Origin: Deltaproteobacteria bacterium
GTDB lineage: Bacteria > Lernaellota > Lernaellaia > JACKCT01
Length of the DNA: 64,000 nt
Reading direction: 5' to 3'
Assembly: GCA_020845895.1 (NCBI GenBank)
Contig: JADLEX010000047.1
Coordinates: 13,073-77,072 of the forward strand
The notes under the pieces were generated by a model. It was not told the origin of the DNA and did not search any database. It saw only the letters and a program-made list of their open reading frames with translations. The position numbers were made by a program, and so were the translations under genes. Shown here piece after piece: positions 2,888 to 57,162 of this stretch. The stretch's first letter is position 1. The number at the start of each line of letters is the position of its first letter.

Positions 2888-3994
2888 ATGAATTTTGCGA
2901 AGGTTTCCGTTTGGCGATTCGCGATGCTCGCGACCTTGCTCGCGTCCGTGACGATCGGTTGCGGCGACGATGACGACGACGATTCCGAGCCCGGCGATGA
3001 CGACGCTGCCGACGACGATGTGTCCGATGACGATACGGAAGACGACGACACGGGGGACGACGACACGGCGGACGACGATACGACAGATGACGACACCGGC
3101 GACGACGACACGGCGGACGACGATACCGACGACGACACGGCCGACGACGACACGGCCGATGACGACACGACCGACGACGACACCGGTGACGACGACACGC
3201 AGATCGCGTGCGAAGACCTGATCACACCCGAACTCGTCGAGCCCGAGGTTGTGGAAATTCCCGCGGGGACGTTCACGCAGGGCAGCCCCGAGGAAGAACT
3301 CGGCCACTCGAGTCTGGAAGAACAGCGCGAGGTCACGATCTCGAAGGCATTCTACATGATGAAGTATGAGGTCACGCAGTCGCTGTGGCTCGCGGCGATG
3401 GGCGAGATCAATCCCTACCAGGTGGAGTGCGGCGACAACTATCCGGTCACGGTGGTGCGTTGGATGGACGCGGTCGAATTCGCGAACCTGCTTTCGGTCG
3501 AATTCGGCTACACCGAGTGCTACGAGATCGGCGAGACGAGCGCGACGTGGGACACCGACTGCACCGGGTTTCGCCTGCCCACCGAGGCCGAGTGGGAATA
3601 CGCCGCGCGCGCGGGCACCGACACGGCGTTTTACAACGGTGACATCGTCGATCCCGGCTGCGCCGACGAGGGGTTGCTGGACATCGCATGGTACTGCGGC
3701 GCGGGATACTCCGCGCATGAGGTCGGCCTGAAGGATCCCAACGCGTGGGGCCTGTACGACATGCTGGGCAACGCTTGGGAGTGGGCGTTCGACGGCTACG
3801 ATGCCGAGCCGTACAATTACGACCCCGCGGGCCCGGTGACCGACCCCGTCGCGCCGGGCACGTTGGCGCGCATCTATCGCGGAGGTTCGATGTACGCTTA
3901 CGCGGCCAACTGCCGCGCGGCGTATCGGCGGCTCGCGCTATCGACCTACATGGACGAGGACAACGGCGTGCGGCTCGCGCGCAACAAGCCGTAG
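2888..3994 (+). CDS. lipoprotein with poly-Asp/Thr linker and FGE-sulfatase (SUMF1/DUF323) family catalytic domain
   Basis: ATG at 2888 follows in-frame upstream ORF start at 2843; lipobox TIGC; ~75-aa (DDDTx)n linker; C-terminal domain has RWMDAVEF..., GFRLPTEAEWEYAARAG, GNAWEW, RGGS motifs characteristic of formylglycine-generating-enzyme fold. Confidence 0.75.
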   Translation: MNFAKVSVWRFAMLATLLASVTIGCGDDDDDDSEPGDDDAADDDVSDDDTEDDDTGDDDTADDDTTDDDTGDDDTADDDTDDDTADDDTADDDTTDDDTGDDDTQIACEDLITPELVEPEVVEIPAGTFTQGSPEEELGHSSLEEQREVTISKAFYMMKYEVTQSLWLAAMGEINPYQVECGDNYPVTVVRWMDAVEFANLLSVEFGYTECYEIGETSATWDTDCTGFRLPTEAEWEYAARAGTDTAFYNGDIVDPGCADEGLLDIAWYCGAGYSAHEVGLKDPNAWGLYDMLGNAWEWAFDGYDAEPYNYDPAGPVTDPVAPGTLARIYRGGSMYAYAANCRAAYRRLALSTYMDEDNGVRLARNKP

Positions 3995-13016: not shown

Positions 13017-13197
13017 GCGGGGACACGCACCGCTGCGCGCTGCATGTCCCCGACTTCGCTCGGCACCCCTCTCGGGAACACGGGGACACGCACCGCTGCG
13101 CGTTGCATGTCCCCGACTTCGCTCGGCACCCCTCTCCCGCCTGGCGGGAGAGGGGCAGGGGTGAGGGCCGCGCGGGCAGGGGTGAGGGCCGCGCCGA
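13017..13197. repeat. intergenic repeat cluster (family B): 63-bp tandem duplication, perfect 13-bp inverted repeat CCCCTCTCCCGCC/GGCGGGAGAGGGG, and CAGGGGTGAGGGCCGCG x2
   Basis: read directly between qor-like gene stop and pyrD start; related hairpin at 42281..42340. Confidence 0.6.
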
Positions 13198-16726: not shown

Positions 16727-17515
16727 TTACGGCGCCCAGTTCGTCCCGCCGCCGAATCCCACGATCACCTGCGCGAAGAACGCATTGAACGCGAAGTCGG
16801 GATTGTCGCCGTCCAGGTCGCGGCCCTCGATGCGCCATCCCGACGAAGCGATGTCGCCGATCACGCCCACGCGCAGACCGGTGAACGCCATCGCGTACGC
16901 GTTCGGCTCGCCGACGAAGGGGAAAAACCAATCGAGGTGCAGCGCGGCCATGCCCGAGAAGGCGTAGTAGTCGAGACGCACGTCCTGGTTCTCGGCGAGT
17001 GTCACGGTGCCGTCGGATTCGCGCGGACCGAGGTTCACGTAACGCAGTCCCGCCTGGCGCGCGAGGGGCAGCGCGGTGTAGTCACCTTCCAGATCGATGG
17101 TGAGGCTCGTCGCGCCGACGCCGAGCACGGGATACAGGCGTAGGCCGTGGAAATCGACCGCCACGAACCCGGCGTCGAAGAAGAATGTGTTGCCGATCAG
17201 GTCGGCGTCCACCCGCGGACCGCTCGCCTCATCGCGCAGCGCGAATCCCGAGAATCCGAACGTGAGTCGCTGAAAGACGAACCCGCGCAGCTCGCCGCCC
17301 GCGCACAGATAGCCGTCATCGAAGGCATCCGTGCCGATCGGTTCCAGATAGTCGGAGACGCCCGACAGGTCGAGCCCGGCGTAACCCACGGCGATCCCCA
17401 TCTGACCGCCGAAGGCCATATCCGTTTCAAAGGCCGCCGCGCCAGTGGCGCACACCGCGCAGATCGCCAGCGCCACCGCCGCCGCCACTCGGGGAGAAAA
17501 TGTTTCGCGAGTCAT
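16727..17515 (-). CDS. putative outer-membrane beta-barrel protein (signal peptide + amphipathic beta-strands)
   Basis: start taken at MTRETFSPRVAAAVALAICAVCATGAAAFE (signal peptide); alternating hydrophobic pattern; ORF extends upstream to 17785 but that part looks non-coding. Confidence 0.45.
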   Translation of the reverse strand: MTRETFSPRVAAAVALAICAVCATGAAAFETDMAFGGQMGIAVGYAGLDLSGVSDYLEPIGTDAFDDGYLCAGGELRGFVFQRLTFGFSGFALRDEASGPRVDADLIGNTFFFDAGFVAVDFHGLRLYPVLGVGATSLTIDLEGDYTALPLARQAGLRYVNLGPRESDGTVTLAENQDVRLDYYAFSGMAALHLDWFFPFVGEPNAYAMAFTGLRVGVIGDIASSGWRIEGRDLDGDNPDFAFNAFFAQVIVGFGGGTNWAP

Positions 17516-17610
17516 CGCAAGCTCCGCGCCGATTCGGTCCATCATGCCGAATCGTTTGGGGCGTGTCACGACGTGACGCGCCCGGATGTCGACCGTGACG
17601 CGTTCAAGTG

Positions 17611-19170
17611 TCAATTCGCGGCGGCGGCCTTGCGCGGAAATTTCGCCAGCCAGTAGCGTTCCCAGCGCACGCCGTGGGCGCGGCCCATGTCCGTACGTCG
17701 ATACCCCGCCTCGCCAAGCCATGCGCGGGCGAGCGCCGCGCCTCGGTCCCCGCCGTCGCGCGTGCCGTGGCTTTCGACGATCCAAACCTCGTGAGCGCCG
17801 CCGAGAGACGCGAGCAACGCATCGCGCGCCGACGCCGGCATGATCGCGGCCGATTCGCGCGGCAGCGGGTCGAATCCCGGCAGGTCGGTCGGCAAGGCGA
17901 TCGCGGCGTCCGACCGTTTCGAATAAACGAGGAACGCGTCCTTGACGAAGTGCGCGACCACCAGCGCCTTCGCGTCCGACCGCGCGGTTCGGTCGAATCG
18001 ACGCACGACCTCGCGCAGGTCTTCGCGGCCCTCGCCGCGGGTGATCGCACCCATCAGCAGTTGCGCCGCGAGCACAATCATCACGAGCGCGTTTCGCATC
18101 GCGCCCTCACCGAGTGACGAGATCGCCATCAGAAACAACGCCAGGATCGGCGCGGCGAGCAGCGCGAAGTAGTGCGTGGCGATGAAGACGCAGAACACGA
18201 AATGTGCCGCGAGCGCCGTAGCGATCGTGACGGCGACGACCGCGAGCGGAAATCCCGCGCCCATGCGCCCCCCGCTGTCCATGAGCGCGAATCCACCCAA
18301 ATCCGCGCCCCGGCGCCGCGCCGCTCGCCAGGCGCCCCAGACGATCGCTCCCGCGCCGACCACGGCGCTCGCCGCGCCGAGCCGCGCGCTCGCGAGATAG
18401 GCGCTTTTCATGAGACCCGAGACGGGGCTGTGCTGCACGAAAATCTGGATGGACCGGCGCGCAATCTGGTAAGGCGTCGCGTCCCAGCGCACCCATCCGG
18501 AATCGGGGCCGAGGCGCGCGAACTGCCCCACCGCCGCCACGAGCCAGGGCGCGAACAGCGCGAGCGCGGCGACATTCGCAATCGCAATTGACCGCGCGGT
18601 CATGCGCGACCGACGCCACGCCATCGCGGCGATAGCGAGCTGCGCGATGCACAGATACCCCGCGTAGTAGAACGTGTAGAGCCCAAGCGCGTTCGCGAGC
18701 GCGAGCGCCGCCATGCGTTTGCGGCACTCGGGGCGACGGATCACTTCCCACAACGCGAGAAAAGCCGCCGCGCCCAGCATTGCCGACAGGCTGTAGCTTC
18801 GCGCGAGGCGCGACATCGAGATCAGCGAGGGATCGAGAAACGAGACGAGCACGCCGAGCAGCGCGCCCGCCTCGCCCGCGATGACGAATCCGACGAGGGC
18901 GAACAAGGCGACGAGGATCGTCCCCGCCAACACGGGAACGATTCGGACGCGTCCCTCGATCGTCATCCCCAGATCGAACGAGGCGACAAGACGTTCAAGC
19001 GCGGGGAAGAGCGGCGGGTGGACGTCGTCCGCCAGGCTCGGCGCGTCAACGGCCAGGGCATAACGGGCGACGTAGAGTTCGTCGGTGTTCAGCCCGGGTT
19101 GGCTGAGCAGCGCCACGCGGGCCACCGCCGCCAACACGATCACCGCCGCCACAAGCGCCCGCACGCGCAT
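17611..19170 (-). CDS. GT-C fold membrane glycosyltransferase, family 39/83-like (PMT/ArnT-type)
   Basis: >=10 TM helices; first periplasmic loop carries DE motif (NTDELYVARYA); start MRVRALVAAV at 19170; paralogs at 55180..56808 and 60530..62128. Confidence 0.6.
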   Translation of the reverse strand: MRVRALVAAVIVLAAVARVALLSQPGLNTDELYVARYALAVDAPSLADDVHPPLFPALERLVASFDLGMTIEGRVRIVPVLAGTILVALFALVGFVIAGEAGALLGVLVSFLDPSLISMSRLARSYSLSAMLGAAAFLALWEVIRRPECRKRMAALALANALGLYTFYYAGYLCIAQLAIAAMAWRRSRMTARSIAIANVAALALFAPWLVAAVGQFARLGPDSGWVRWDATPYQIARRSIQIFVQHSPVSGLMKSAYLASARLGAASAVVGAGAIVWGAWRAARRRGADLGGFALMDSGGRMGAGFPLAVVAVTIATALAAHFVFCVFIATHYFALLAAPILALFLMAISSLGEGAMRNALVMIVLAAQLLMGAITRGEGREDLREVVRRFDRTARSDAKALVVAHFVKDAFLVYSKRSDAAIALPTDLPGFDPLPRESAAIMPASARDALLASLGGAHEVWIVESHGTRDGGDRGAALARAWLGEAGYRRTDMGRAHGVRWERYWLAKFPRKAAAAN

Positions 19171-19426: not shown

Positions 19427-20053
19427 GTGCGAATGGTGCGGACGCGGAAAACCGAGGAAGTCGAGTTCACACGGGGGCAATTCGCCCGCGCCTCGCTCAA
19501 GGTTTTTCTGGAAAAGGGCTTTTTCGGCGCGACGATGGAGGAGATCTCGAGGGCGGCCGGGTACTCGACGACCGCCATTTATAAATATTTCCACGCAAAG
19601 GACGAGGTCTTTCACGCCGCGCTCGCGTCGATTTCCCGCGATTTTCTGGAGATTCTCGACGAATCGGTGCCGGCGAGCCTCGATTTTCGGGCGTTTCTGA
19701 CTTGGAAGATGACTCGGGCGCTGGGCAAAGCCGACAAGGATCGGGACGTCTTCATCGGCTTCATGACGCAGATCGCGATGGGTCCGTGGCATACGGCCAC
19801 GCACGAAAATATCCGCGAGGCGCACATGGAATTCATGCGGCGGTTCGAGGACTACATGCGGCGCGGGATCGCCGAGGGGGCGCTGGCGCCCGGCGATCCG
19901 TCGATCTATGCGTCGGCGCTCGACGGGCTCACGCACGCGTTTATCGAGCGTTGGCTGTTCGCGGGGGCGAACTACGCCCTGACGGACCACGTGGAGACCA
20001 TCATCGAGCTGTTCCTGAACGGGGTCGGCGCGAGGGGCGGTGTGGCATCATGA
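19427..20053 (+). CDS. TetR-family transcriptional regulator
   Basis: HTH block ATMEEISRAAGYSTTAIYKYFHAKDEVF. Confidence 0.8.
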   Translation: MRMVRTRKTEEVEFTRGQFARASLKVFLEKGFFGATMEEISRAAGYSTTAIYKYFHAKDEVFHAALASISRDFLEILDESVPASLDFRAFLTWKMTRALGKADKDRDVFIGFMTQIAMGPWHTATHENIREAHMEFMRRFEDYMRRGIAEGALAPGDPSIYASALDGLTHAFIERWLFAGANYALTDHVETIIELFLNGVGARGGVAS

Positions 20054-20184
20054 CTCCGATTCTTGCCGGGTTTTCCTCGAACTTTTCGTCTCATGACGCG
20101 TGGTTTCCATTGACATTTCAAGATCTTCATGGACAATGTGACCACCTGACCGCGGCGGTCAACGGTTTCCATGATGGGTCGCTC

Positions 20185-20766
20185 ATGAGCAACAAGGAAG
20201 AACGGATTCTCGAGGCCGCCGGCCGGCTTTTCAGCCGCTACGGGCTCAAGAAGACGACGGTCGACGAAATCGCCCAGGAAGCGGGGGTCGGCAAGGGCAC
20301 GATCTACCTGTATTTCGAGAGCAAGGAAAAGATCTTCACCAAGCTCGCTTATCAGAACGCCGGCCGGGTGCTGCACAAGATGGCGGACGCGGTGGGCGGG
20401 GCGACGAGCGTCGTCGACCAACTCTATAATCTGATTTTGGCGCGTTTTCGATATGTTGATGAACTCGTGAAGTATCATGATGTGAACCTGGAGTACGTGA
20501 CAAAGGAGCTGAAACCCAGCACGGCCGAGGTCACGGCCGAGTTTCGCAAGCACGAGCTGGAACTGCTGGAACGCGTCATTCGCGACGGCGTCCGCGGCGG
20601 CGAGCTCGAAGTCTCGGAACGAGAAATCCCGGTCGTGAGCCTGGCCCTGTCGGCGAGCCTCGAAGCCCTGGAAATGCCCTGGGTCGTCGAGGGGCGCGAG
20701 CTCCCCATCGAGCGCAAAGCCGAAGTGCTCGTGCGTTTGTTCATTAAAGGACTGCAGAGAACCTGA
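20185..20766 (+). CDS. TetR-family transcriptional regulator (second, tandem)
   Basis: start MSNKEERILEAAGRLFSRYGLKKTTVDEIAQEAGVGKGTIYLYFESKEKIF; upstream part of ORF 19702.. is in GC-shadow. Confidence 0.8.
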   Translation: MSNKEERILEAAGRLFSRYGLKKTTVDEIAQEAGVGKGTIYLYFESKEKIFTKLAYQNAGRVLHKMADAVGGATSVVDQLYNLILARFRYVDELVKYHDVNLEYVTKELKPSTAEVTAEFRKHELELLERVIRDGVRGGELEVSEREIPVVSLALSASLEALEMPWVVEGRELPIERKAEVLVRLFIKGLQRT

Positions 20767-20810: not shown

Positions 20811-22256
20811 GTGACGGAGGTGTCCGCCGTGCGTGAGCGCGCCCGTGCGTCTTTTTCCCGGTTTCTGACGGTCGTTCTGATCGTCACAGCGTTCGGTTGG
20901 GCCGACCCCGCCATCGCGCAGAACGCCCCGGCGGCGGCGACCGACGAGGCCAAACTCGGCGCGCTGACGCTCGCCGAAGCGATCAAATTGGCCGTCGCGA
21001 ATGGCGAGTCCGCCAAGATCGCCGAAGCGAACACCGAGGCTGCGCGGCTCACGGTGCGCGAGAGCGAGGCCGGCGCGTATCCGCAGGTCACCGGTATCGT
21101 CGGCTACACCTACAACATCAACCAGCCCAAGCAGGAGATGGAGTTCGCCGAGGCGTTCAATCCGCTGATGCAGGCCATGGGCCTGCCGCCGATGGAGAAC
21201 CCCGAGATCCCGCTTGTGTACCGTCACGACTGGGCGATGACGCTCGACGTGCAGCAGACGCTCGCCGTCGGACGCGTGTCGAAGGCGATCCGCCTCGCGA
21301 AGATGTACGAGGAGTCGAGCCGCCTCGGCGCGGACGTGACGAATCGCGACACCGCGCTCGAAACCGCGCGGGCGTATTACGACGTGGTGCTCGCCGAGGA
21401 ATTTCTGAAAGTCTCGCAGATGTTCCTCACGCTTTCGCAAAACCACCACGACGACACGAAGCGCAAGTACGAGGCGGGACTCAAGAGCGAGTTCGACCTG
21501 CTTCAGGCGCAGGCCGATCTCGCCGCCGCCGCGCCGAACGTGACCGACATGCAACAACGCGTCGCCCTCGCCAAGAAAAATCTGCTGCGTCTGGTGGGCA
21601 TGCCGCTCGATCGCGAAGTCACTTGCGCCGAGAGCTTTTCGGAGGAAACGGTTCAGACGGCGACCGACGCATGGCGCGAGGAGGCGTTCTCCGAGCGCGA
21701 GGAACTGCGCATGTTGACCCTCGGTCGGCAGATGAAGCGCACTGAGAGCAATTTGTACTTCTCGAACATGCTTCCCGCGTTTTCCGCGAACATGGCGTAC
21801 ACCTACGCGGGACAGAGCATCACGGAAGAAAACGATTTCTGGCCCGTCGAGGATGACTGGAACACGTTCTGGTCGGTGGGCATCCAGATGCAGTGGCCGA
21901 TCTTCGACGGCCTGGGCAACTGGCAACGCGGTCGCCGCGCGCGCGTCGAGGAGCGCATCGCCGCTCTCAACGCCGCCCGCACGGCGAAAGGCATCGATCT
22001 GGAGATCGAACAGGTTTCGACGACGTTGCGCACCGCCGGAGAAAAGCTCGCCGCGCGCAAGGAGGCGATGCAGGTCGCCGACCGCGCCTTCCATCTGGCG
22101 AGCGTGCGTTACGAAAACGGCCTCGGCACCGCGCTCGAAAAGATGGACGCCAAGGCCGTGTGGACGCAGGCCCGCGTCGCATACCTGCAAACGCTCTACG
22201 AACTGAACGTTGCGCGCTACCAGCTCGCGCACGCGCTCGGAAAGGAAACGTGGTGA
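20811..22256 (+). CDS. TolC-family outer membrane efflux protein
   Basis: signal peptide, two tandem helical/beta-barrel repeats with Q/A/L-rich coiled segments; first gene of efflux operon; exact start uncertain (GTG 20829 alternative). Confidence 0.8.
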   Translation: MTEVSAVRERARASFSRFLTVVLIVTAFGWADPAIAQNAPAAATDEAKLGALTLAEAIKLAVANGESAKIAEANTEAARLTVRESEAGAYPQVTGIVGYTYNINQPKQEMEFAEAFNPLMQAMGLPPMENPEIPLVYRHDWAMTLDVQQTLAVGRVSKAIRLAKMYEESSRLGADVTNRDTALETARAYYDVVLAEEFLKVSQMFLTLSQNHHDDTKRKYEAGLKSEFDLLQAQADLAAAAPNVTDMQQRVALAKKNLLRLVGMPLDREVTCAESFSEETVQTATDAWREEAFSEREELRMLTLGRQMKRTESNLYFSNMLPAFSANMAYTYAGQSITEENDFWPVEDDWNTFWSVGIQMQWPIFDGLGNWQRGRRARVEERIAALNAARTAKGIDLEIEQVSTTLRTAGEKLAARKEAMQVADRAFHLASVRYENGLGTALEKMDAKAVWTQARVAYLQTLYELNVARYQLAHALGKETW

Positions 22257-22257
22257 G

Positions 22258-23382
22258 ATGAAACGCAGCGTGCTTCTCGTCGTGGGGATCGGCGTCGCGG
22301 CCGCGGCGCTCGTGGGATACCGCTTCGCCAAGGGCAAGCCCGTTCCGCAAAAAAGCATCGAAGAGATCCAGAAGGAGCAGGGCGTACCCGTTGAGGCGCT
22401 GCCGGTCGAGGCCGGACGCTTCGAACGCTGGCGTCGCTTTTCGGGCGAAATGCAGGGCAAGGAACAGGCCGTGCTGTACGCCAACGCACCGGCGCGCGTG
22501 TCAAAAGTCGCCGCCGCGCAGGGCGACACGGTCGGACGCGGGCGCGTCATCATCCGTCTCGATCCGCTCTCGGCGACGCAGTCGTATTCGTCGATTTCCG
22601 CGGCGCGCATCCAGGCCGACGACGCGAAGCGGTTTTACGAGCGCCTCGCGCCGCTCCACGAAGCGGGTGCGGTGGCCAAGGAAGACTTCGACCGCGCGAA
22701 AAGCGCTTACGACATGGCGCGCGCGGCGCTGACCGATGCCAGCGGGTCGATGACGCTCTCGTCGCCGATCAAGGGAACCCTCACCGACGTGCGCGTGCGC
22801 GAGGGCGACCGCGTCGATCCGCTCCAGACGCTCGCGGTGGTCGCCGACCTCTCCGGCGCGAAATTCGTCGCGGATGTCGCGCAGGGCGACGTGGAGGAAC
22901 TGCGAACCGGTCAGACCGTCGCCGTGTGCGACGACGGCGTGGCGATCGCCGACTGCAACGTGCGCGGGACGATTTCGCGCGTGAGCTTGTCCGCCGATGC
23001 GTCGTCGCGGCTGTTCCGCGTCGAGGCCGAGTTGCCGTCGATGGAGAGCCCGCGCCTCGGCACCATGCGTTACGCGCGGGTGCTCGTGTACGAAAAAGAC
23101 GGCGCGCTGGCGGTGCCGATCGAGTCGGTCATCACCCGCGGGGGAAAGACGAGCGTCTTCGTGGTCGAGGGCGACATCGCGAAGCGGCGCGAGGTGACCA
23201 TCGGCAAAAACGACGAGCGGCGCGTCGAGATCGTGGCCGGTCTGTCGCCGGGCGAACGCGTGGTGGTGTGGGGCGCAAACCGCATCGCCGACGGCGCGAA
23301 GGTGAAGGTCGTCCCGGCGGCGGGCGAGGCCGCGCCGGTCGCGAGTGCCGAAGCGACCCCCGAAGCCCCCGCCGCGAACTGA
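22258..23382 (+). CDS. efflux RND transporter periplasmic adaptor (HlyD/MFP family)
   Basis: N-terminal TM anchor MKRSVLLVVGIGVAAAALVG; lipoyl and beta-barrel segments; ATG at 22258 overlaps TolC stop. Confidence 0.85.
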   Translation: MKRSVLLVVGIGVAAAALVGYRFAKGKPVPQKSIEEIQKEQGVPVEALPVEAGRFERWRRFSGEMQGKEQAVLYANAPARVSKVAAAQGDTVGRGRVIIRLDPLSATQSYSSISAARIQADDAKRFYERLAPLHEAGAVAKEDFDRAKSAYDMARAALTDASGSMTLSSPIKGTLTDVRVREGDRVDPLQTLAVVADLSGAKFVADVAQGDVEELRTGQTVAVCDDGVAIADCNVRGTISRVSLSADASSRLFRVEAELPSMESPRLGTMRYARVLVYEKDGALAVPIESVITRGGKTSVFVVEGDIAKRREVTIGKNDERRVEIVAGLSPGERVVVWGANRIADGAKVKVVPAAGEAAPVASAEATPEAPAAN

Positions 23383-23391
23383 GGACACGCC

Positions 23392-26300
23392 ATGTCGCTC
23401 ATCAGCACCTCCGTCGACCGCCCGGTGCTCACCACGATGGTGGTGGGATCGCTGATCGTGTTCGGTCTGTTCTCGTTCACGCAGCTCTCGCAGGATCTCG
23501 TGCCCAAGGTCGAGTTTCCCTTCGTCGTCGTCACCACGATCTACCCCGGCGCGGGCCCGAAGGAGATCGAGAGCCAGGTCACGGAGAAGCTGGAGGACGA
23601 GGTCGGCTCGGTGGCCGGGCTCAAGCGAATGGAGTCGCAGAGTCTCGAAAGCCTCTCGCTTGTCCTTCTGGAATTCGAACTCGACGTGGATGCGGATCTC
23701 GCCGCGATCGAGGTGAAGGACAAGGTCGATCTGGCGATGATCAACCTGCCCGACGATGTGCAGCCGCCCATCGTGCAGCAGTACAGCTTCGACAGCTTTC
23801 CCGTGCTCAACGTCGCGGTCTATTCCGACCGACCGCTGCCCGAGATCACGCAGCTCGCCGACACGCGCGTCAAGGATGCGGTCTCGCGCGTGGACGGCGT
23901 GAGCAAGGTCGACCTGATCGGCGGTCTGCAACGCGAAATCCACGTGGCGTGCCGCGCCGATCGGCTGCGAGCCTACGGCCTGTCGATCATGGAAGTCGTC
24001 GGATTGATCCAGGCGGAGAATTTCAACTTCCCCACGGGCCGCATCATCGGTTCGGCCAGCGAGTATTCGTTGCGCATGGTCGGCGAGATGAACGACCTCG
24101 AACGGCTGAAGGGGATGCGCATACCGGTCGCGGACGGGGCGACGATCCGCCTGCGCGACGTGGCCGACGTGACCGACGCGTGGGAGGAACCCCGTGCCGA
24201 GGCGCGTTTCCAGGGCAAACCCGCCGTGTCGCTTCAGGTGATGAAAAAGAACGACGCCAACTCGGTCGAGGTCAGCGCCGGCGTGCACGATGCGGTGGCG
24301 AAGCTCGCGCCGTGGATCGCGCAGGAGAACCTGATCGTCGAGATCATCAACGACCGGGCGAAGTACATCGAGGACTCGGTCGCCGACGTGACGGGCAATA
24401 TCTGGGTCGGCGTGATCCTCACCTCGATCCTGCTCTACCTGTTCCTGCACGACTACCGGCAGACGTTCATCGTCGCCGCGGTCATGCCCGGCAGCGTCGT
24501 GGCCACCTTCGCGCTCATGAACTTCGCGGGGTTCACGCTCAACATCATCTCCCTAATGGCGCTCGGCATCAGCGTGGGCACCATCGTCACCAACTCCATC
24601 GTCGTGCTCGAAAACATCACCACCAAACTGCACGCCGGTCTCGACAGCCGCGAGGCGGCCATCGAGGGCACGTCCGAGGTGGCGGTCGCCGTCGCGGCGA
24701 GCACCCTGACGAACATCGTCGTCTTCACGCCCATCGCCTTCATGAAGGGCATCATCGGCCAGTTCTTTTACCAGTTCGGCCTCACGGTCGTGTTCGCCAC
24801 GATCGTGTCGCTCATCATTTCCTTCACGCTCGTGCCGATGCTCGCGCGGCTCGTGCTCGCGCGCCCCAAGGGGCATCTCACGCACCACGACAACCGAAAT
24901 CCCACGATTCTGGAACGCTTCGCGAAAGCGTGGGACCGCTTCTACGACGAACTTGCGAGCGACTACGCCGCGTCGCTGCGCGCGGCGCTCAAAAAAAGAT
25001 GGCTGGTGGTGGTGGTCTCGGTGCTGTCGCTCGCCGGCGGTTGCGGACTGCTGACGCAGGTGGGTGCGGAGTTTTTCCCGGAGGGCGACGAGGGCATTTT
25101 TCGGATCATCGCCAAGCTACCGCCGGGTACGAGCCTCGCGCAGACCGACCGCACGCTGCGCGACATCGAAAGTCGCCTGACCGGCGTCGCCGAATTGAAG
25201 TCCATGCTGTCCGAGGTGGGCGGCGCGGGAAAGGGCGTCGAGGACGGACAGGTCACCGTACAGCTCGTCGATCACGAGCTGCGCGAACGCACCGTGGCGC
25301 AGGTGATGGACGAGATCCGCCCGCGCCTCGTCGATATCCCGGCGGCGGAAATCCAGCTCGTGGTGGGCGACGGCGGCGGCGGACCGGGCCAGGGTGTGCA
25401 GGTCGAGGTCACCGGACCCGAGCTCGCCGAGGTCAATCGCATCGCCGGCGAGGTGTTGACGCTCGCGCGCGGCGTGCCGGGCATCATCGACCTTCGTTCC
25501 ACGTACGAAGCCGGCAAGCCGGAGCTGTCCTTCACCCCCGACCGGCAGCAACTCGCGTCGTACGGCATCACCTCACAGCAAGTGGCGTACGCGCTGCGAA
25601 CCGCCTTCGAGGGACAGGAGGTCACGTACTTTCGCGAGCACGGCGAGGACTACGACATCCGCGTGCTGCTCGACAAGACGGAGCGGGCCGACGTCACCGC
25701 GTTCGGAGACGTGCTGATTCGTGCGGGCGACCACCAGGTTCCGCTGGGCCAACTCGGCGAGATCCGCTACACGCAGGCCGAAACGAAGATCGAGCGCAAG
25801 GATAAACAGCGCATCGTGAAGGTGCTGGGCAACGTGTCGGGCATCACCACGGGCGAGGCGGTCGACGCGCTCCAACCGATCCTCGACAAGAACATTCGCG
25901 TGCCGGAGAGCTACGACATTCACTTCGGCGGCGAGGCCGAGAGCATGGCCGAGGAATTCGGCTATATCTTCCAGGCCCTGATTCTCGCCATCATCCTGAC
26001 GTATATGCTGCTCGCGGCGATTCTCGAGGACTTCGTCCACCCCTTCACCATCATGCTCACGTTGCCGCTCGGCATGATCGGCGTGGCGATGGCGCTGTTC
26101 ATCGGCGGCGTGTCGATCAACATGATGAGCCTGATGGGCATCGTCATGCTCGTCGGCATCGTCGTGAACAATGCGATCCTGATCCTCGATTACGTGCGCG
26201 TGCTGCGCGAACAGGGCATGCCGATCGGCGAAGCGCTCATCGAGGCGTCGGCGTCCCGGCTTCGCCCCATCATCATGATGAATCTCGCGATCGCGCTGTC

Positions 26301-26472
26301 GGTGCTTCCGCAGACGCTTTCCGGCGCGGGCGCGGAGTTCCGGCGTGCGCTGGCCGTTGTCACGATGGGCGGCGTGCTCGTCAGTGCGATCTTCACGCTC
26401 TTTCTGGTCCCCGCGATCTACACGGCCTTCGACCGCTTCGCGATCAAGCCGAAGGTCAAGTCGGGGGCGTAG
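23392..26472 (+). CDS. RND efflux permease (AcrB/HAE1-type), 12 TM
   Basis: 1026 aa; characteristic two large periplasmic loops and conserved TM4/TM10 segments. Confidence 0.9.
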   Translation: MSLISTSVDRPVLTTMVVGSLIVFGLFSFTQLSQDLVPKVEFPFVVVTTIYPGAGPKEIESQVTEKLEDEVGSVAGLKRMESQSLESLSLVLLEFELDVDADLAAIEVKDKVDLAMINLPDDVQPPIVQQYSFDSFPVLNVAVYSDRPLPEITQLADTRVKDAVSRVDGVSKVDLIGGLQREIHVACRADRLRAYGLSIMEVVGLIQAENFNFPTGRIIGSASEYSLRMVGEMNDLERLKGMRIPVADGATIRLRDVADVTDAWEEPRAEARFQGKPAVSLQVMKKNDANSVEVSAGVHDAVAKLAPWIAQENLIVEIINDRAKYIEDSVADVTGNIWVGVILTSILLYLFLHDYRQTFIVAAVMPGSVVATFALMNFAGFTLNIISLMALGISVGTIVTNSIVVLENITTKLHAGLDSREAAIEGTSEVAVAVAASTLTNIVVFTPIAFMKGIIGQFFYQFGLTVVFATIVSLIISFTLVPMLARLVLARPKGHLTHHDNRNPTILERFAKAWDRFYDELASDYAASLRAALKKRWLVVVVSVLSLAGGCGLLTQVGAEFFPEGDEGIFRIIAKLPPGTSLAQTDRTLRDIESRLTGVAELKSMLSEVGGAGKGVEDGQVTVQLVDHELRERTVAQVMDEIRPRLVDIPAAEIQLVVGDGGGGPGQGVQVEVTGPELAEVNRIAGEVLTLARGVPGIIDLRSTYEAGKPELSFTPDRQQLASYGITSQQVAYALRTAFEGQEVTYFREHGEDYDIRVLLDKTERADVTAFGDVLIRAGDHQVPLGQLGEIRYTQAETKIERKDKQRIVKVLGNVSGITTGEAVDALQPILDKNIRVPESYDIHFGGEAESMAEEFGYIFQALILAIILTYMLLAAILEDFVHPFTIMLTLPLGMIGVAMALFIGGVSINMMSLMGIVMLVGIVVNNAILILDYVRVLREQGMPIGEALIEASASRLRPIIMMNLAIALSVLPQTLSGAGAEFRRALAVVTMGGVLVSAIFTLFLVPAIYTAFDRFAIKPKVKSGA

Positions 26473-29866: not shown

Positions 29867-30226
29867 GTGATGAAACGCTCGTTCCTTGGGGTCCTGTCGG
29901 TCTGCGTCGTTGCGCTCTCGATCGGCGTCTTCGCGTGCGATGGCGGCGACGGCGACGGCGAGACGTCGTGGGATCAGCTTTCGGGTCAGGATGACGCGAT
30001 CGATCAGTGCATCGCGCTGTGCGAATACGCGCTCGCCGACGAGCTGGATCTCTCCGACGGCCCGTGCCTGTCGGAAGAGGTGGTCGAGGACTGGGTGTGC
30101 GACGTGGCGCACAATCCGCGCACCGACGTGGATGACCTCGACACGAATCAGTGCGACAACTTCGGCGAGGGCGCGGCGCACTTCGTCGAGGTGACGCCCG
30201 ATTGCGAATTCATCAAGGCCGGTTGA
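29867..30226 (+). CDS. small acidic Cys-rich lipoprotein
   Basis: lipobox GVFAC followed by DGGDGDGE; 10 Cys in 119 aa. Confidence 0.5.
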   Translation: MMKRSFLGVLSVCVVALSIGVFACDGGDGDGETSWDQLSGQDDAIDQCIALCEYALADELDLSDGPCLSEEVVEDWVCDVAHNPRTDVDDLDTNQCDNFGEGAAHFVEVTPDCEFIKAG

Positions 30227-30274: not shown

Positions 30275-31942
30275 ATGCTTCGAAATGACCTCACGTCGAT
30301 TCTCGCAGTCCTCGCGTTCGCGTGTTTCGCGGCGGGATGCGGCGGCGGTTCGTCGTCGGATTCCGGCGACGGTGCTGACGGCGACGCAGTCGATGACGAT
30401 TCGGTTACCGATGACGACGCGGCCGACGACGACGACACGTCGGTCGATGACGATACGACGGATGACGATTCATCCGATGACGATACGACGGACGATGACA
30501 CGTCGGATGATGACGCCGACGACGACACGTCCGACGACGACGACGACGATACGGGGGATGATGACACGACACCGTGCCCCGACGCGGATGGCGATGGATA
30601 CACCGACGCGGCCTGCGGCGGCGAGGATTGCAACGACGCCGATGACGCGGTGAATCCCGACGCGCTCGATGTGTGCGGCGACGACATCGACAATGACTGC
30701 GACGACACGGTCGACAATCCTGAAAATCCGCCGGTGGACCTGCCGGGATTCCTGCTTGGCGTGTGCGGCAGCGGCGGCGATCCCAAGGTGCTGTTGCCGG
30801 AACTGGGTATCGCATGGCACCGGCCCACGTTTTCGTGGATCTCGTTCGAACCGGAAGTCACCGATCCCGATCTGACGATGGCCGAGATCGAAGCCGATCC
30901 CACGATCATCGACGATTACATCGACGCGAAGAACTGGACGGGGATCGACGCGAACGCGAAATCCATGCTCGATGCGGGACTGACGCTCATGCCCATCGTC
31001 GGTCACGGCTACACGACCACGCTGCCCTATATCGATGGTGATCGCGCAACGCCGGATCGACTCGGCCGCGAGCAATACCTGGCGCAGCAATACCGCGAGG
31101 TGCGCGCGCTGGTGGAGCGCTACGACGGCGACGGCTACAAGGACGCGACCGACATCGTCATCAAATTCTGGCAGACCGAAAACGAACTGAATCAGGCGAT
31201 GCTGACGGGCATCTACGGCTGGCGCTCACCGGAATGGTTCGACGCGTTCGCGTCGGCGTGGGGCGATTGGGATTTCATCACCGAGCTGCTCGCCACCCTT
31301 TACCGCGCCGTCCACGACGCCGATCCCGACGCGATCACCACGCAGAACCTGCACACCGACATCCATCCGAACTACTCGGCGCTACTGGGCCAGCCGTCGT
31401 GGATCGAGGCCGCGACCCTGTGGCGCGATTACGTCGACCTCATGGGCTTCGATGCCTACCCCAACTATTACGTGGCCGAGCCGGTGATGGGCGAGGTGGT
31501 GGGTGAGCGGGCCGAGACGATCGCCGAGGCGTCGTGCGGTAAGCCGGTGATCGCGATGGAGATCGGCTATCCCAAGGGACCGGTCGAATTGGGCTTTTCG
31601 GCCGAGTCGCAGGCCGATTTCATCGACGAGGCATTTCACGCGGCTTACGACGCCGGCGTGGTCGGGTACTTTCATTTTGGGTTGCAAAGCGCCGATGCCG
31701 ACAGCGTGGACATCACGCCGGACGACATCGCGGCCCTCGCGGCGATCGGCCCGGATTTCACCGACGGACGCATCCTGCCCGTGCTCGCGTACCTGATCGC
31801 ACACCCCGAGGTGATCGATCCGCATTTCCTCGATGTTCTTCAGAGCGTCGAGACCTACTGGGGCGTCGTCCACAACGACGGCACACATCAACCGGGCTTT
31901 GACGTTCTCTCCGATATCGCCGACGAGATCGCCGGGCGCTAA
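30275..31942 (+). CDS. lipoprotein: poly-Asp/Ser/Thr linker, MopE-like putative metal-binding Cys motif, TIM-barrel glycoside-hydrolase-like domain
   Basis: lipobox FAAGCGGG; ~75-aa D-rich linker; CPDADGDGYTDAACGGEDCNDADDAVNPDALDVCGDDIDNDCDD; WQTENELN resembles GH catalytic NE(L/P) motif. Confidence 0.55.
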   Translation: MLRNDLTSILAVLAFACFAAGCGGGSSSDSGDGADGDAVDDDSVTDDDAADDDDTSVDDDTTDDDSSDDDTTDDDTSDDDADDDTSDDDDDDTGDDDTTPCPDADGDGYTDAACGGEDCNDADDAVNPDALDVCGDDIDNDCDDTVDNPENPPVDLPGFLLGVCGSGGDPKVLLPELGIAWHRPTFSWISFEPEVTDPDLTMAEIEADPTIIDDYIDAKNWTGIDANAKSMLDAGLTLMPIVGHGYTTTLPYIDGDRATPDRLGREQYLAQQYREVRALVERYDGDGYKDATDIVIKFWQTENELNQAMLTGIYGWRSPEWFDAFASAWGDWDFITELLATLYRAVHDADPDAITTQNLHTDIHPNYSALLGQPSWIEAATLWRDYVDLMGFDAYPNYYVAEPVMGEVVGERAETIAEASCGKPVIAMEIGYPKGPVELGFSAESQADFIDEAFHAAYDAGVVGYFHFGLQSADADSVDITPDDIAALAAIGPDFTDGRILPVLAYLIAHPEVIDPHFLDVLQSVETYWGVVHNDGTHQPGFDVLSDIADEIAGR

Positions 31943-32103
31943 CGCGGAACTAAAAATAACCTTTGGCTTTCCGCACGCGCGGCCAAGGCCGAGATTTTTC
32001 TTTTTTCCAAGTCAAAATTGTGATATTCGATACACACTAGATCCGGCGCGAAAGTGTGCGTTGGTCGATGTTTTGGATGTTTCCAAACTCTGGAGGTGGT
32101 GCG

Positions 32104-32892
32104 ATGCGCGAGTGGATGTTGGTGCTGCCGGCGATTTGCACTGCGCTGTTCCTGCTCAGCGGATGCGGCGACGATGATGACGACAACGACACGGCTCCCT
32201 CCGATGACGATGTCGATGACGACGCCGATGATGACGCGGACGACGATGCCGATGACGACGTCGACGACGATGTCGATGACGATGCGGACGACGACTCGGC
32301 CTTCCCCGATCCCTTCACGGAAGACTTCGAGAGTTACGACTTGGGGACAACGCCCAACGGTCCGTGGTCGCCGGAGTATATCGAAGGCGCCCTCGCCTTC
32401 ACTATCGTCGAGGCCGTGACCAAGGACGGATCCGGCCACGTTGTCGAATTCGACGATCCGGACGGATCTTCCTGGGGCGAGCTGCACGCGAATTTCCCCG
32501 AACAGACGAGCATGTTCACGCTGTCGTGGGATTGGTACTGGCTGTCGGGAGAAATGGCCTGCGTATCGGCGACGCACTCGGGCGGCGGCGGTTGGACCAG
32601 CCTGTTCGACGTGTGTCTCAATATCGCGCCCGACGCACACGTCGAGGCGATCAACGGCGAAGGACAGTGGATCGGCTGCGGCCTGACCGCCCTTGAAACG
32701 TGGCAGACGGTCAGCATGGTTGTGGACTCGTCCTCCATGACCTACTCGGTGCTGATCGACGGCGCGCCGAGCAGTTGCACCGACTTCGACTGGTACATGC
32801 AGAGCGGCCCCGTCGACAGCTTTTCGCTGATGGCGATCGGCGTTTACGACGGTCTTGCGCATTTCGACAACATAGCGCTCACGCACGACTGA
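32104..32892 (+). CDS. lipoprotein with poly-Asp linker and domain of unknown function
   Basis: lipobox LLSGC then DDDDDND...(DDDAx)n; AT-rich promoter-like region upstream. Confidence 0.55.
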   Translation: MREWMLVLPAICTALFLLSGCGDDDDDNDTAPSDDDVDDDADDDADDDADDDVDDDVDDDADDDSAFPDPFTEDFESYDLGTTPNGPWSPEYIEGALAFTIVEAVTKDGSGHVVEFDDPDGSSWGELHANFPEQTSMFTLSWDWYWLSGEMACVSATHSGGGGWTSLFDVCLNIAPDAHVEAINGEGQWIGCGLTALETWQTVSMVVDSSSMTYSVLIDGAPSSCTDFDWYMQSGPVDSFSLMAIGVYDGLAHFDNIALTHD

Positions 32893-32905: not shown

Positions 32906-33436
32906 ATGATGAAACCGTTGGCATTGGCCGCGGCGGCCTTCATGGTTCTCGGAATCGTGCTCGCGGGGTTTGCCACCGCGCCGGAGGACGCCGGCGACTG
33001 CCCCGACGTCAACAGCCTCTGCTTCGACAAGGTCATGTACCTCTACGTCGAGTGCAATCTCTTTCTATACGACCCGGAGTCGGGAGAGCCGATCGACGTG
33101 GAGGATCTCGTCGCCGATTGTCAGGCGGGGACGAACGACTGGGTCAACGCCGTCATGAACTGCATCGCGGTTTTCTGCGGCGATGGGTGCGAGAAAGTCG
33201 GCGAGTGCATCGAGGAGGTGATTGGCGACGATGACGAAACCGCCGATGACGACGCCACCGATGACGACACCGACGACGACTGGCTGAATGACGACGAAAC
33301 GGACGACGATGGCGACGACGACTCCGACGACCTGTGGGACGACGATGACGAAGGCGACGACGACACGACCGCGCCGACCCCCGCGCCGAAGTCGGACGAC
33401 GATGATGACGACGATCCCTATGCCTGGTGCGCGTAA
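32906..33436 (+). CDS. secreted Cys-rich protein with poly-Asp C-terminal region
   Basis: signal peptide; 9 Cys in N-terminal half; C-terminal DDDETADDDATDDDTDDD... Confidence 0.5.
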   Translation: MMKPLALAAAAFMVLGIVLAGFATAPEDAGDCPDVNSLCFDKVMYLYVECNLFLYDPESGEPIDVEDLVADCQAGTNDWVNAVMNCIAVFCGDGCEKVGECIEEVIGDDDETADDDATDDDTDDDWLNDDETDDDGDDDSDDLWDDDDEGDDDTTAPTPAPKSDDDDDDDPYAWCA

Positions 33437-35831: not shown

Positions 35832-36365
35832 CTATTCGAGATCGTGAACCGCGAGCGCTGACTGGAAGCCGGCGTTGCTTCGCAGGATCGACCCCGCGTA
35901 CGCGCCCGCCTCGGTGAGAAAACTCACGTAGTACGCTTTCTGATTATCCGAGGGATCGAGTTCGCCCGACCACAGGTCGGTCTTCGTGACCTCGAAGGGT
36001 TCGCGAATGTACGCCGTGACGGCGGTGTCCGTGCCCGTGTAAGGCCGATCGAGATCGTACAGCGCAATGAGTTCATCGACGGTCGGAAGCCGCCAGTCGG
36101 ACTTGTCCGCCTCGTCGAGACCCTCGGCCCAATCCCGCGCGTCGTCCCACGTGAGCGCCGCGCCATTGTCCTGCGTCTTCCAAAGCAGGCATTCGCAGGT
36201 CATCGTGCCGTCGCCGTTATCCTCGCAGCCGTCCACGCACTCGGTTTGTTCTTCCTCGGCCGCGTCGTCGTCATCGTCGTCATCGCCGCCGCCGCCACAT
36301 CCGATGGCGATCGTCGTCGCCGTCGCGAATACAAAAAGAATGCCGAACAGCGTGCGCATCGTCAC
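35832..36365 (-). CDS. DUF1566 (Lcl C-terminal-like) lipoprotein with poly-Asp linker
   Basis: lipobox IAIGCGGGGDDDDDDD; LWKTQDNGAALTWDDARDWAEGL...SDWRLPTVDELIALY matches DUF1566 core. Confidence 0.6.
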   Translation of the reverse strand: MTMRTLFGILFVFATATTIAIGCGGGGDDDDDDDAAEEEQTECVDGCEDNGDGTMTCECLLWKTQDNGAALTWDDARDWAEGLDEADKSDWRLPTVDELIALYDLDRPYTGTDTAVTAYIREPFEVTKTDLWSGELDPSDNQKAYYVSFLTEAGAYAGSILRSNAGFQSALAVHDLE

Positions 36366-46102: not shown

Positions 46103-46188
46103 CGTCACGCGAACCAACCCCAACAGTGATGTGGTTTGATTGTCCCGGTCGTTGGAATCGATGTCAATTGAGCTGGGCGGGTTGATTC

Positions 46189-56808: not shown

Positions 56809-57022
56809 CCTCTTCCGCGTGTTCTTCCCGTTTCTGTTCGATGACGTGCCGCTTGGCCGGTGAAATGATGGATTCGAGTTCGAGCATGGCGAGCGCCGCC
56901 GTGCCCGGCGACGCCTTCCTCTTTCGCCAGTAGATCCAACCGCGCGCCTCCGCGGCCAGCAACAGGCGGTCCAGTACGAATGCCGCGGCGAGCACGGCGA
57001 TCACGATCAGCGCGGTCCTCAT
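56780..57022 (-). CDS. small membrane protein (80 aa) overlapping start of GT39-like gene
   Basis: MRTALIVIAVLAAAFVLDRLLL TM helix then acidic tail; 29-nt overlap suggests translational coupling; weak. Confidence 0.35.
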   Translation of the reverse strand: MRTALIVIAVLAAAFVLDRLLLAAEARGWIYWRKRKASPGTAALAMLELESIISPAKRHVIEQKREEHAEEDDEGDPPTT

Positions 57023-57130
57023 GACGCACCCCGCCCGGCGCGAACCGCGCCGACACGAAAGCATAATCACGGACCGGCGCATTGGCCACCGGTGGGAAAA
57101 GATTTTGGCCCGCGCGCCTCGCAAGCCACG

Positions 57131-57162
57131 AAAAAAGTTCTTGACAATATGGGGGGGGGGGG
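57131..57162 (+). promoter_or_regulatory. sigma70-like promoter with G12 homopolymer in the -35/-10 spacer (TTGACA-atat-G12-cgtt-TATTAT)
   Basis: read directly; spacer 20 nt as assembled; 60 bp upstream of RBS AAGGAGAG + ATG 57224. Confidence 0.4.

Follow-up and report, generated by a model that had tools for sequence, protein, structure and literature searches.

Three putative GT-C/PMT_2 glycosyltransferases from an uncultured Lernaellota lineage, including an ancestral divergent gene pair beside lpxC

GT-C enzymes work at the outer face of the cytoplasmic membrane, where they modify lipid A, polysaccharides and proteins, and this decoration affects envelope charge, antibiotic resistance and surface recognition. 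ArnT (GT83, PDB 5ezm and 5f15) is the undecaprenyl-phosphate-L-Ara4N:lipid A transferase, and LgmB, FlmK and RgtA-D likewise modify lipid A or the LPS core from undecaprenyl-phosphate donors. The PMT_2 group is a large and loosely delimited set of bacterial and archaeal proteins, most of them uncharacterized. Its members, which NCBI names "glycosyltransferase family 39 protein", have a common N-terminal module composed of TM1, a D(E) loop, an hPPLY motif and TM2-TM7. The Gtr, Arn, streptococcal GtrB/PgtC2 and Pgf systems have three components, a GT2-family synthase, a flippase and a GT-C protein (PMC8035078, PMC11127046, PMC12041528). Protein O-mannosylation in bacteria has been studied only in Actinobacteria (PMC11727336), while the transferase acting on the extended O-glycosylation motif of Bacteroidota was unknown in 2022 (PMC8729774). 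The paper on the Lernaellota (PMC9324843) makes no mention of glycosyltransferases, glycosylation, lipoproteins or acidic linkers.

Three genes of this type, here labeled GT1, GT2 and GT3, are present in the window, i.e. the whole 64 kb stretch of DNA that was analyzed (Table 1). The term GT2-family synthase refers to a separate enzyme type and not to gene GT2. As originally predicted, all three are intact ORFs for polytopic proteins with Asp in what is probably the first periplasmic loop. In GC3 all three have the strong bias typical of real genes. Hydropathy divides each protein into a hydrophobic N-terminal part of ~380 aa, with about 11 predicted TM helices, and a soluble C-terminal domain of 140-170 aa for which no Pfam model was matched. 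Scans for promoters and terminators near the three genes gave counts close to the shuffle expectation.

Table 1. Features of the window discussed in the text (positions in nucleotides of the window)
Feature	Position	Strand	Properties
FGE-sulfatase-like lipoprotein	2888-3994	+	Pfam FGE-sulfatase 136 bits; Thr-rich (DDDT-x)n linker; earlier proposed as acceptor
Imperfect 15-nt repeat	2995-3199		Linker repeat
272-aa secreted protein	16727-17545		Downstream of GT1
GT1	17611-19170	-	519 aa; putative GT-C_A glycosyltransferase; ORF has exactly these ends
Two TetR-family regulator genes	19427-20766	+	Pfam; divergent from GT1
RND efflux operon	20811-26472		Follows the TetR pair
Acidic-linker lipoprotein	29867-30226		
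Acidic-linker lipoprotein	30275-31942		
Acidic-linker lipoprotein	32056-32892		
Acidic-linker lipoprotein	35832-36365	-	
Acidic-linker lipoprotein	about 44114-46100	-	
GT2	55180-56808	-	542 aa; putative PMT_2-type GT-C; ORF has exactly these ends
80-aa single-pass membrane protein	56780-57022	-	29-nt overlap with GT2 start
Low-GC insertion	57091-60463		3.4 kb; 53.8% GC vs 67-69% in flanks; between GT2 operon and GT3
Acidic-linker lipoprotein	59396-59722		
GT3	60530-62128	+	532 aa; PMT_2-type membrane protein; ORF has exactly these ends
lpxC	62561-63493	+	Pfam LpxC 352.6 bits; ~430 nt after GT3 stop, same strand

Pfam PF13231 (PMT_2) is the sole family model matched by the three proteins, with 23.2 bits for GT1, 27.4 bits for GT2 and 29.4 bits for GT3. 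The gathering threshold is 26.1 bits, which places them at the family boundary, GT2 and GT3 above the threshold and GT1, on its own, below it. The membership of GT1 is supported by the precomputed PF13231 match of the identical database protein P0001 and by its homologs, which are PMT_2 proteins. NCBI already gives the family 39 name to the identical database proteins. The second model considered in the original prediction, PF02366, gave no match at E<=1 for any of the three, while E. coli ArnT, used as a control, scores 211 bits on it. Since no other Pfam family was above threshold either, the proteins have no PMT_4TMC or MIR domain. A search of NCBIfam with all three returned nothing at E<=1, ArnT models included; an assignment to ArnT or to a lipid A-specific clade, the result named beforehand as fatal to the original prediction, was thus not obtained.

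Structural comparison places GT1 in the GT-C_A fold superfamily (Pfam clan GT-C), with three-dimensional similarity to solved GT-C enzymes; the best whole-length TM-score of its model, 0.57, is to ArnT. The AlphaFold model of GT2, built from a 6-sequence alignment, had a pLDDT of 42.9 and was left out of the fold search. Searches of PDB sequences by phmmer with each single protein gave chance matches only, and nothing was found there with the GT2 and GT3 family profiles. The likeness to yeast Pmt1, Pmt2 and Pmt4 and to actinobacterial Pmt spans about 330 aligned residues at 12% identity. Identity to ArnT is about 13-14%, and ArnT has 13 TM helices against the about 11 predicted here. Judged by their sequences, all three are predicted to be GT-C/PMT_2 glycosyltransferases, neither true PMT (GT39) nor ArnT (GT83).

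Acidic residues directly follow TM1 in GT1 (D30-E31), GT2 (D48-E49-V50) and GT3 (E40-S41-D42). The acidic loop-1 motif described earlier is present; the DE/DVHPPL-type motif is common to the wider PMT_2 group and so is not specific to PMT. In GT1 the loop contains NTD30E31 and then D49-V-H51-P-P-L. When the GT1 family profile is aligned with yeast Pmt1, D30-E31 falls on the DE of Pmt1 and DVHPPL on its DVHPPL. The PMT-type combination is found in the GT1 family, GT2 has DE plus PLYY, and the match of GT3 is not clear. E31 is invariant in 20 of 20 GT1 family members; D30 is invariant in the six closest members only and is missing from several distant ones. D48-E49 of GT2 aligns with the DE of the GT1 family (hhalign and family HMM), and D48 is invariant in all six aligned GT2 sequences. 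GT3, which diverges most from the others, has a loop 1 containing C39-E-S-D42-G and WPWLYPF; its D42 corresponds in position to D30 of GT1 in a non-significant hhalign alignment and is conserved in 2 sequences only. Each gene is thus predicted to encode a polytopic protein whose first loop outside the cytoplasm holds a conserved acidic residue, which in GT3 is probably D42.

The C-terminal domain of GT1 is of the alpha/beta type (about 380-519) and carries a conserved D475-R476-G477, while that of GT2 has ~168 aa and that of GT3 is Cys-rich. Lys/Arg clusters in alternate loops of GT1, and the Cys residues of GT3, with pairs in loop 1 and five in the C-terminal domain, were counted in favor of a periplasmic orientation. 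The N-terminus of GT1 would then be cytoplasmic and its loop 1 periplasmic.

The term paralogs, applied to these genes before, is too strong. Pairwise BLASTP detected no significant similarity among GT1, GT2 and GT3. Homology of GT1 and GT2 appears at the profile level only (hhalign probability 95% over the N-terminal ~215 columns, DE on DE), and GT2 scores 41.9 bits over residues 18-378 against the 123-sequence family HMM. The GT3 profile gave no significant link to the GT1 or GT2 families, by hhalign or by family HMM. Relatives are few in all cases. For GT1, a search of 1.84 billion cluster representatives gave about 15 at E<1e-30, and a homolog is known from Candidatus Lernaella stagnicola. 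A word-indexed search through 5.8 billion proteins gave five relatives of GT2 and, for GT3, one cluster. The only other relative of GT3 came from a metagenome scan, as one locus that is also the source of the GT2-GT3 adjacency described below; all these GT3 relatives are close (90-91% identity). The three genes appear from these searches to represent three tiny, lineage-restricted and very divergent subfamilies.

GT2 and GT3 are parted by the low-GC insertion in the window, and in that sense they are scattered, as had been stated. In the related locus L019, however, they are adjacent, in the order dctM, GT2, small ORF, ~0.7 kb, GT3, lpxC, and comparison of the window with L019 by blastn and tblastn showed that the insertion is absent there. 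Within the insertion lie a 290-aa ORF, an M10-like metalloprotease ORF, tandem repeats and a lipoprotein that is Cys-rich and has an acidic linker. Together, the small-protein/GT2 operon and GT3-lpxC make up an ancestral divergent pair, and they probably belong to one pathway. The adjacency of GT3 and lpxC was observed in all four loci seen (window, L008, L009 and L019). It is confined to relatives with at least 90% identity, in which synteny is expected, so it is weak evidence for the acceptor. No decisive promoter or terminator call was obtained in the interval between the two genes.

The gene for the 80-aa membrane protein overlaps the start of GT2, which suggests that the two are translationally coupled. 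This agrees with the earlier proposal, and the gene is conserved in L007 with 94% amino-acid identity and 13 synonymous vs 6 non-synonymous codon differences. It is also present in L019. In Pfam it gave a weak sub-threshold match to DUF6191 alone (E 0.011).

GT1 would be an independent unit beside TetR regulators. The synteny with the TetR and RND genes is kept in a relative with 83% identity (L001). Other homologs have different neighbors: a group II intron and penicillin acylases in L002, a class A PBP in L011, and DUF2804 in L013, L017 and L018. These contexts disagree, which was counted against the reading favored below. No characterization of DUF2804 was found in the literature searched. 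The 272-aa secreted protein downstream of GT1 was considered as a conserved partner and rejected; it has no Pfam match, and no ortholog was present in the 460 nt after the GT1 homolog of L001.

On the donor side, the window differs from the three-component systems. Pfam searches of most ORFs found no gene for a polyprenyl-phosphate-sugar synthase, a flippase or sugar-nucleotide synthesis in the 64 kb, and tblastn with two GT2-family synthase-like proteins from L015 and L016 found nothing in the window. A GT2-family synthase, suggested earlier as a gene to look for nearby, was thus not found in the window, where the GT-C genes stand alone and the partner of GT2 is the 80-aa single-pass protein instead. 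Because none of these genes is present in the window, we only infer the type of donor. Distant homologs of gene GT2, in contrast, sit in loci of the three-component kind, with synthase-like, sugar-nucleotide and paired GT-C genes. In L015, which contains a 27%-identical homolog, there are two tandem GT-C paralogs and a 272-aa GT2-family enzyme whose best NCBIfam similarities are to PgfS, ArnC and dolichyl-phosphate hexose transferase, together with a 4,6-dehydratase-like gene and a LegC/PseC/ArnB-like aminotransferase. In L016 the GT-C gene and the end of an ORF fragment upstream of it overlap by 4 nt; the fragment, without a Pfam or NCBIfam match, was judged by eye to be the C-terminal end of a GT2-family enzyme. 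After the GT-C gene come a second PMT_2-like protein and a gene annotated as GT2-family. No flippase was identified in L015 or L016, although synthase-like GT2-family genes are present in both. The proximity of distant gene-GT2 homologs to synthase-like GT2-family and amino-sugar genes supports the proposed donor chemistry.

The reading that we favor, with a probability of about 60%, is that GT1, GT2 and GT3 are three separate members of GT-C_A that transfer sugar in the periplasm from a polyprenyl-phosphate-sugar, possibly to a glycolipid or glycan. Each would be an inner-membrane enzyme of about 11 TM helices with a cytoplasmic N-terminus, a small C-terminal domain facing the periplasm, and a catalytic or acceptor-activating Asp in the first periplasmic loop (D30 in GT1, D48 in GT2 and probably D42 in GT3). 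By analogy with every characterized GT-C_A enzyme, a single sugar would be taken from a flipped polyprenyl-phosphate-sugar donor and transferred at the periplasmic face to an acceptor, in an inverting reaction. The GT2-family donor synthase and the flippase would have to be encoded elsewhere in the genome. As for the acceptor, our best guess is not the lipoprotein linkers but a glycolipid or glycan of the envelope (LPS lipid A/core or other surface polysaccharide). The GT-C membership of GT3 depends on one Pfam match 3 bits above threshold, which counts against this reading. The result is mainly a corrected annotation, with GT-C/PMT_2 proteins, an ancestral divergent pair beside lpxC and a conserved small membrane partner. 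These are very divergent GT-Cs from an uncultured lineage, and their acceptors, once defined, would be new specificities in a poorly charted class.

An ArnT-like function, in which GT2 and/or GT3 would place a cationic or other sugar from undecaprenyl-phosphate onto Kdo or onto a lipid A phosphate, is unlikely. For GT1, ArnT is suggested by the best TM-score match and by an architecture in which a TM domain is joined to a small periplasmic C-terminal domain of the alpha/beta type, and lpxC adjoins GT3. An Arn-like gene set, with the ArnB/PseC/LegC-like aminotransferase, the dehydratase, the ArnC-like GT2-family enzyme and GT-C genes, was found, but only beside the L015 homolog of gene GT2, and GT-C genes are paired in L015, L016 and L019. 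The profile searches, however, argue against it. Besides the empty NCBIfam and PF02366 results, hhalign gave a probability of 0.2% when the GT1 family was compared with E. coli ArnT, and ArnT is absent from the PDB sequence matches of all three profiles. No genes of an arn-type operon (ArnB, ArnC, ArnA, ArnD, ArnE/F) are in the window, and GT1 has His at the position where ArnT presumably has its phosphate-binding Lys.

Slightly less probable is the function first proposed, in which at least one of the three would be a protein O-glycosyltransferase that transfers polyprenyl-phosphate sugars onto Thr/Ser of (DDDT)n lipoprotein tethers. The acidic-linker lipoproteins are real, but (DDDT)n, attributed to many of them, describes only two. 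The linker consensus is (DDDX)n, where X is A, V, T, S, G, E or Q. X is mostly Thr/Ser in two of the five long linkers of the window, the other three being A/V-dominated or mixed, and both linkers of the related genome L002 are without Ser/Thr. Thr/Ser is therefore not conserved in the linkers, which are imperfect tandem repeats of 12-15 nt, so that X can drift. In favor of this function, the linker D-T-(A/T/G/S) formally fits the Bacteroidota motif D(S/T)(A/I/L/V/M/T/S/G/F/C) (PMC8729774), and a GT1 homolog occurs together with acidic-linker lipoproteins in L002, although this co-occurrence is confounded by shared ancestry. The GT1 homolog of Ca. Lernaella (L011) overlaps the class A PBP gene by 4 nt, but that PBP is without a Ser/Thr-rich tail. 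No conserved adjacency of any GT gene to a linker lipoprotein was found, and the domain searches gave no PF02366, PMT_4TMC or MIR domain. The broader version, in which the GT-Cs, above all GT1 with its PMT-like loop 1, perform a general periplasmic O-glycosylation of D-(S/T)-x in poly-Asp tethers, is very improbable. If true, its parallels would be the D(S/T)x system of Bacteroidota and, in streptococci, the glycosylation of disordered Ser/Thr-rich regions by GT-C enzymes. A link of the GT genes to the aspartate-rich tethers would be interesting if true; at present nothing in the sequence supports it, and the hypothesis is neither refuted nor supported.

Also very improbable is a role of GT1 in modifying the machinery of cell-wall synthesis or material linked to peptidoglycan. 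The 4-nt overlap of the GT1 homolog with a PBP1 gene (Transgly + Transpeptidase) occurs in L011 and L012, and streptococcal PBP1a is a GT-C substrate (PMC12041528). But only one lineage shows this link, with a homolog about 31% identical to GT1, and it is missing from the window and from L001, L002, L013, L017 and L018, where the neighbors are TetR/RND genes, the group II intron or DUF2804. The window itself contains no homolog of PBP1, and when the Lernaella PBP1 was inspected for the Ser/Thr-rich C-terminal tail seen in streptococci, none was found.

It is highly improbable that at least one gene, with GT3 the likeliest, descends from the GT-C fold but is catalytically dead or no longer a glycosyltransferase, like PIG-U and GAB1 in the GPI transamidase. 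In favor of this, the DE pair of GT3 is without its Glu, the PMT_2 match of GT3 (residues 69-218) leaves loop 1 outside and GT3 scores only 1.1 bits on the broad (123-sequence) family HMM. Against it, D42 lies at the expected distance after TM1 and is followed by an aromatic-Pro-x-Leu-Tyr-Pro stretch resembling hPPLY, many active GT-C enzymes have one acidic residue at the loop-1 site, and GT3 is conserved at 90-91% identity across four relatives.

The three ORFs GT1, GT2 and GT3 lie where they were originally predicted and are real, very divergent glycosyltransferase genes of the GT-C/PMT_2 type. In all of them GC varies with codon position as in real genes (window GC is 65%), and they share one layout: the N-terminal ~380 aa are hydrophobic, with many helices predicted, and a soluble C-terminal domain of 140-170 aa follows. 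The acidic residues claimed to follow TM1 are present (GT1 D30-E31, GT2 D48-E49-V50 and GT3 E40-S41-D42). The sole Pfam match for each protein is a weak one to PMT_2 (PF13231; 23.2, 27.4 and 29.4 bits for GT1, GT2 and GT3, cut-off 26.1 bits). All three are already annotated in NCBI as generic glycosyltransferases, under the label 'glycosyltransferase family 39 protein'.

The original prediction described these proteins as PMT/ArnT-like paralogs. Membership in GT39 or GT83 was not sustained: of the two Pfam models proposed for classification PMT_2 was matched by all three, but PF02366 (PMT) by none at E<=1, while E. coli K-12 ArnT, the positive control, scored 211 bits on PF02366 and 37 bits on PMT_2. 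No NCBIfam model matched, and the GT1 family gave no hhalign match to E. coli ArnT. As these models define the two families, the proteins therefore belong to neither GT39 PMT nor GT83 ArnT, and their place is the uncharacterised PMT_2 periphery. As to paralogy, GT1 and GT2 are homologous at the level of family profiles (hhalign probability 95% over the N-terminal ~215 columns, DE aligned on DE), and GT2 scores 41.9 bits (residues 18-378) on an HMM from 123 GT1 relatives; however, BLASTP detected no significant similarity in any pair, and GT3 was tied to neither GT1 nor GT2 (hhalign probabilities 4% and 2%; 1.1 bits on the same HMM, on which its 90% ortholog scores 16.5 bits). The three represent separate subfamilies within one superfamily rather than a recent expansion. 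Their relatives are scarce. An exhaustive HMMER search with GT1 recovered 1005 proteins at E<=1e-3, with the C-terminal domain common to only ~30 full-length relatives, and word-indexed searches gave five relatives of GT2 and one of GT3.

In a 20-sequence alignment of the GT1 family, E31, P52, P53, E72, R76, Y168, Y416, R476 and G489 are invariant and N28, D49, D475 and G477 nearly so; for D30, invariance holds only within the six closest homologs. Yeast Pmt1 was the sole significant match of the family profile among PDB sequences (E 4e-4), the DE and DVHPPL motifs aligning on DE and DVHPPL of Pmt1. Helix positions and Lys/Arg clusters suggest 11 TM helices in GT1, with the N-terminus inside and a periplasmic alpha/beta C-terminal domain. 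The structure predicted for GT2 is unreliable (pLDDT 43).

The gene for the small membrane protein that had been noticed precedes GT2 and shares 29 nt with the GT2 start. It is called and conserved in L007 (94% identity, 13 synonymous and 6 non-synonymous codon changes) and present in L019. The acidic C-terminal part of the small protein has a weak, sub-threshold match to DUF6191 (E 0.011). The genes of L019 run dctM, GT2, small ORF, ~0.7 kb, GT3 and lpxC; since GT2 and GT3 stand side by side there, GT3 and GT2, the latter together with the small partner, are ancestral divergent neighbours beside lpxC. The GT3-lpxC adjacency is retained in L008, L009 and L019, all relatives of at least 90%. 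The window has a 3.4 kb insertion between the GT2 operon and GT3, with a GC content of 53.8% against 67-69% in its flanks. L019 lacks it, and in L007 and L008 the sequence on the intervening side of GT2 and of GT3, respectively, is a different one, which suggests that the interval is a hotspot for insertions. Tandem repeats lie on the outer side of GT2 and just upstream of GT3 (Table).

GT1 and two TetR genes point away from each other, and an RND efflux operon comes after the TetR genes; an 83% relative (L001) retains this arrangement. The GT1 homolog in L002, a 42%-related MAG, neighbours a group II intron reverse transcriptase and penicillin-acylase lipoproteins. In Candidatus Lernaella stagnicola (L011/L012) the end of a class A PBP gene overlaps the GT1-family gene by 4 nt, and in L013, L017 and L018 a gene of the uncharacterised DUF2804 family is immediately upstream (gaps of 89 and 27 nt and an overlap of 7 nt, respectively). 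A SprT-like gene precedes this pair in two of the three loci, and a convergent radical SAM gene follows it in two. No partner gene of the distant family members, PBP and DUF2804 included, occurs in the window, and GT1 is an independent unit. A signal-peptide protein without Pfam match is encoded 65-95 nt downstream of GT1; from its beta-rich-looking composition it may be an outer-membrane protein, and no counterpart was found after the GT1 homolog in L001.

Two distant GT2 homologs belong to glycosylation loci with several components. The L015 locus has two GT-C paralogs in tandem and, after them, genes for a GT2-family enzyme (the glycosyltransferase family, distinct from gene GT2), a 4,6-dehydratase-like protein and a LegC/PseC/ArnB-like aminotransferase, in this order. 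The best NCBIfam similarities of the 272-aa GT2-family enzyme, all sub-threshold, are to PgfS, ArnC and dolichyl-phosphate hexose transferase. In L016 an upstream ORF fragment ends with a 4-nt overlap into the GT-C gene; read by eye, the fragment is a putative GT2-family C-terminus, and it matches no Pfam or NCBIfam model. Downstream of the GT-C gene are another PMT_2-like protein and a gene annotated as GT2-family. These loci show that paired GT-C genes are usual for the family of GT2, and their synthase-like and sugar genes support polyprenyl-phosphate monosaccharides as its probable donors. The synthase sought nearby, as originally proposed, is absent from the 64-kb window, as are flippase and sugar-nucleotide genes. 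The best-supported mechanism is that a single sugar is passed on in the periplasm, with a polyprenyl-phosphate as its donor; our leading guess for the acceptor is an envelope glycolipid or glycan. Less likely rivals are protein O-glycosylation of the lipoprotein linkers and ArnT-type modification of lipid A, the latter with an Arn-like cluster in L015 and no ArnT kinship in the PF02366 and hhalign searches.

Genes for acidic-linker lipoproteins are plentiful in the window, as predicted, but the description of the linkers as (DDDT)n is too narrow. Imperfect tandem repeats of 12-15 nt encode a (DDDX)n pattern, and the tethers, either of this pattern or simple runs of D6-7, come directly after the lipobox Cys or a few residues from it. 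Thr/Ser predominates at X in two of the five long arrays of the window and Ala/Val takes this position in 32056-32892; X is mixed in 32906-33436 and the 44114-46564 ORF. The linkers of both lipoproteins adjoining the GT1 homolog in L002 lack Ser/Thr, and a Lernaella lipoprotein has C|DDDDDDD. The conserved property is Asp, not Thr. Poly-aspartate tethers look like a lineage trait, since L002 and Ca. Lernaella stagnicola have them too. In E. coli, Asp beside the lipidated Cys is the inner-membrane retention signal. O-glycosylation of the linkers by the GT enzymes is quite unlikely. Three general points favour it, none of them evidence on these genes themselves: loop 1 of GT1 is PMT-like, D-T-x is a formal match to the O-glycosylation motif of Bacteroidota (PMC8729774), and GT-C enzymes of streptococci add sugars to disordered Ser/Thr-rich stretches of a lipoprotein and of PBPs (PMC12041528).

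Coordinates of the genes, loci and repeats discussed (window positions unless a locus is named)
Feature	Position	Strand	Remarks
GT1	17611-19170	-	519 aa counted from ATG
GT2	55180-56808	-	542 aa
GT3	60530-62128	+	532 aa
Small membrane protein	56780-57022	-	80 aa, single-pass
Inserted segment	57091-60463		290-aa ORF; M10-like metalloprotease ORF (weak Pfam match); Cys-rich acidic-linker lipoprotein
Tandem repeats upstream of GT3	60273-60455, 60085-60130		intergenic; 41 nt x 2.8, 33 nt x 3, 11 nt x 4
Tandem repeat, convergent gap dctM / GT2 stop codon	55061-55141		20-nt unit CCGCTTCTTGTCACCCAGAG x 4.1, 95% identity
Signal-peptide protein	16727-17545	-	272 aa
DUF2804 + GT-C pair	L013 8875-11572; L017 5299-8090; L018 2308-4886		DUF2804 345 aa; three independent metagenomic lineages
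Arn-like cluster	L015 9283-17886		methyltransferase, GT-C paralogs (758 + 719 aa), synthase-like GT2-family enzyme, 4,6-dehydratase-like, LegC/PseC-like aminotransferase
Acidic-linker lipoprotein genes	2888-3994, 29867-30226, 30275-31942, 32056-32892, 35832-36365, ~44114-46100, 59396-59722		
Gene with C-terminal acidic region	32906-33436		
Poly-aspartate tethers, window	2995-3199, 30409-30550, 32201-32294, 33229-33331, 36264-36296(-), 45914-46009(-), 59483-59509		
Poly-aspartate tethers, other genomes	L002 1937-2008 and 3313-3444; L011 6128-6148(-)		

Elsewhere in the window, the pyrD-like and zinc-ADH genes are separated by an intergenic region with a 63-nt unit repeated 1.9 times (13018-13136, 98% identity) and a 21-nt unit in two perfect copies (13153-13194). 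A sequence like peptide chain release factor 2 (GGQ motif region) lies within a long composite ORF at ~38200-39267 (+).
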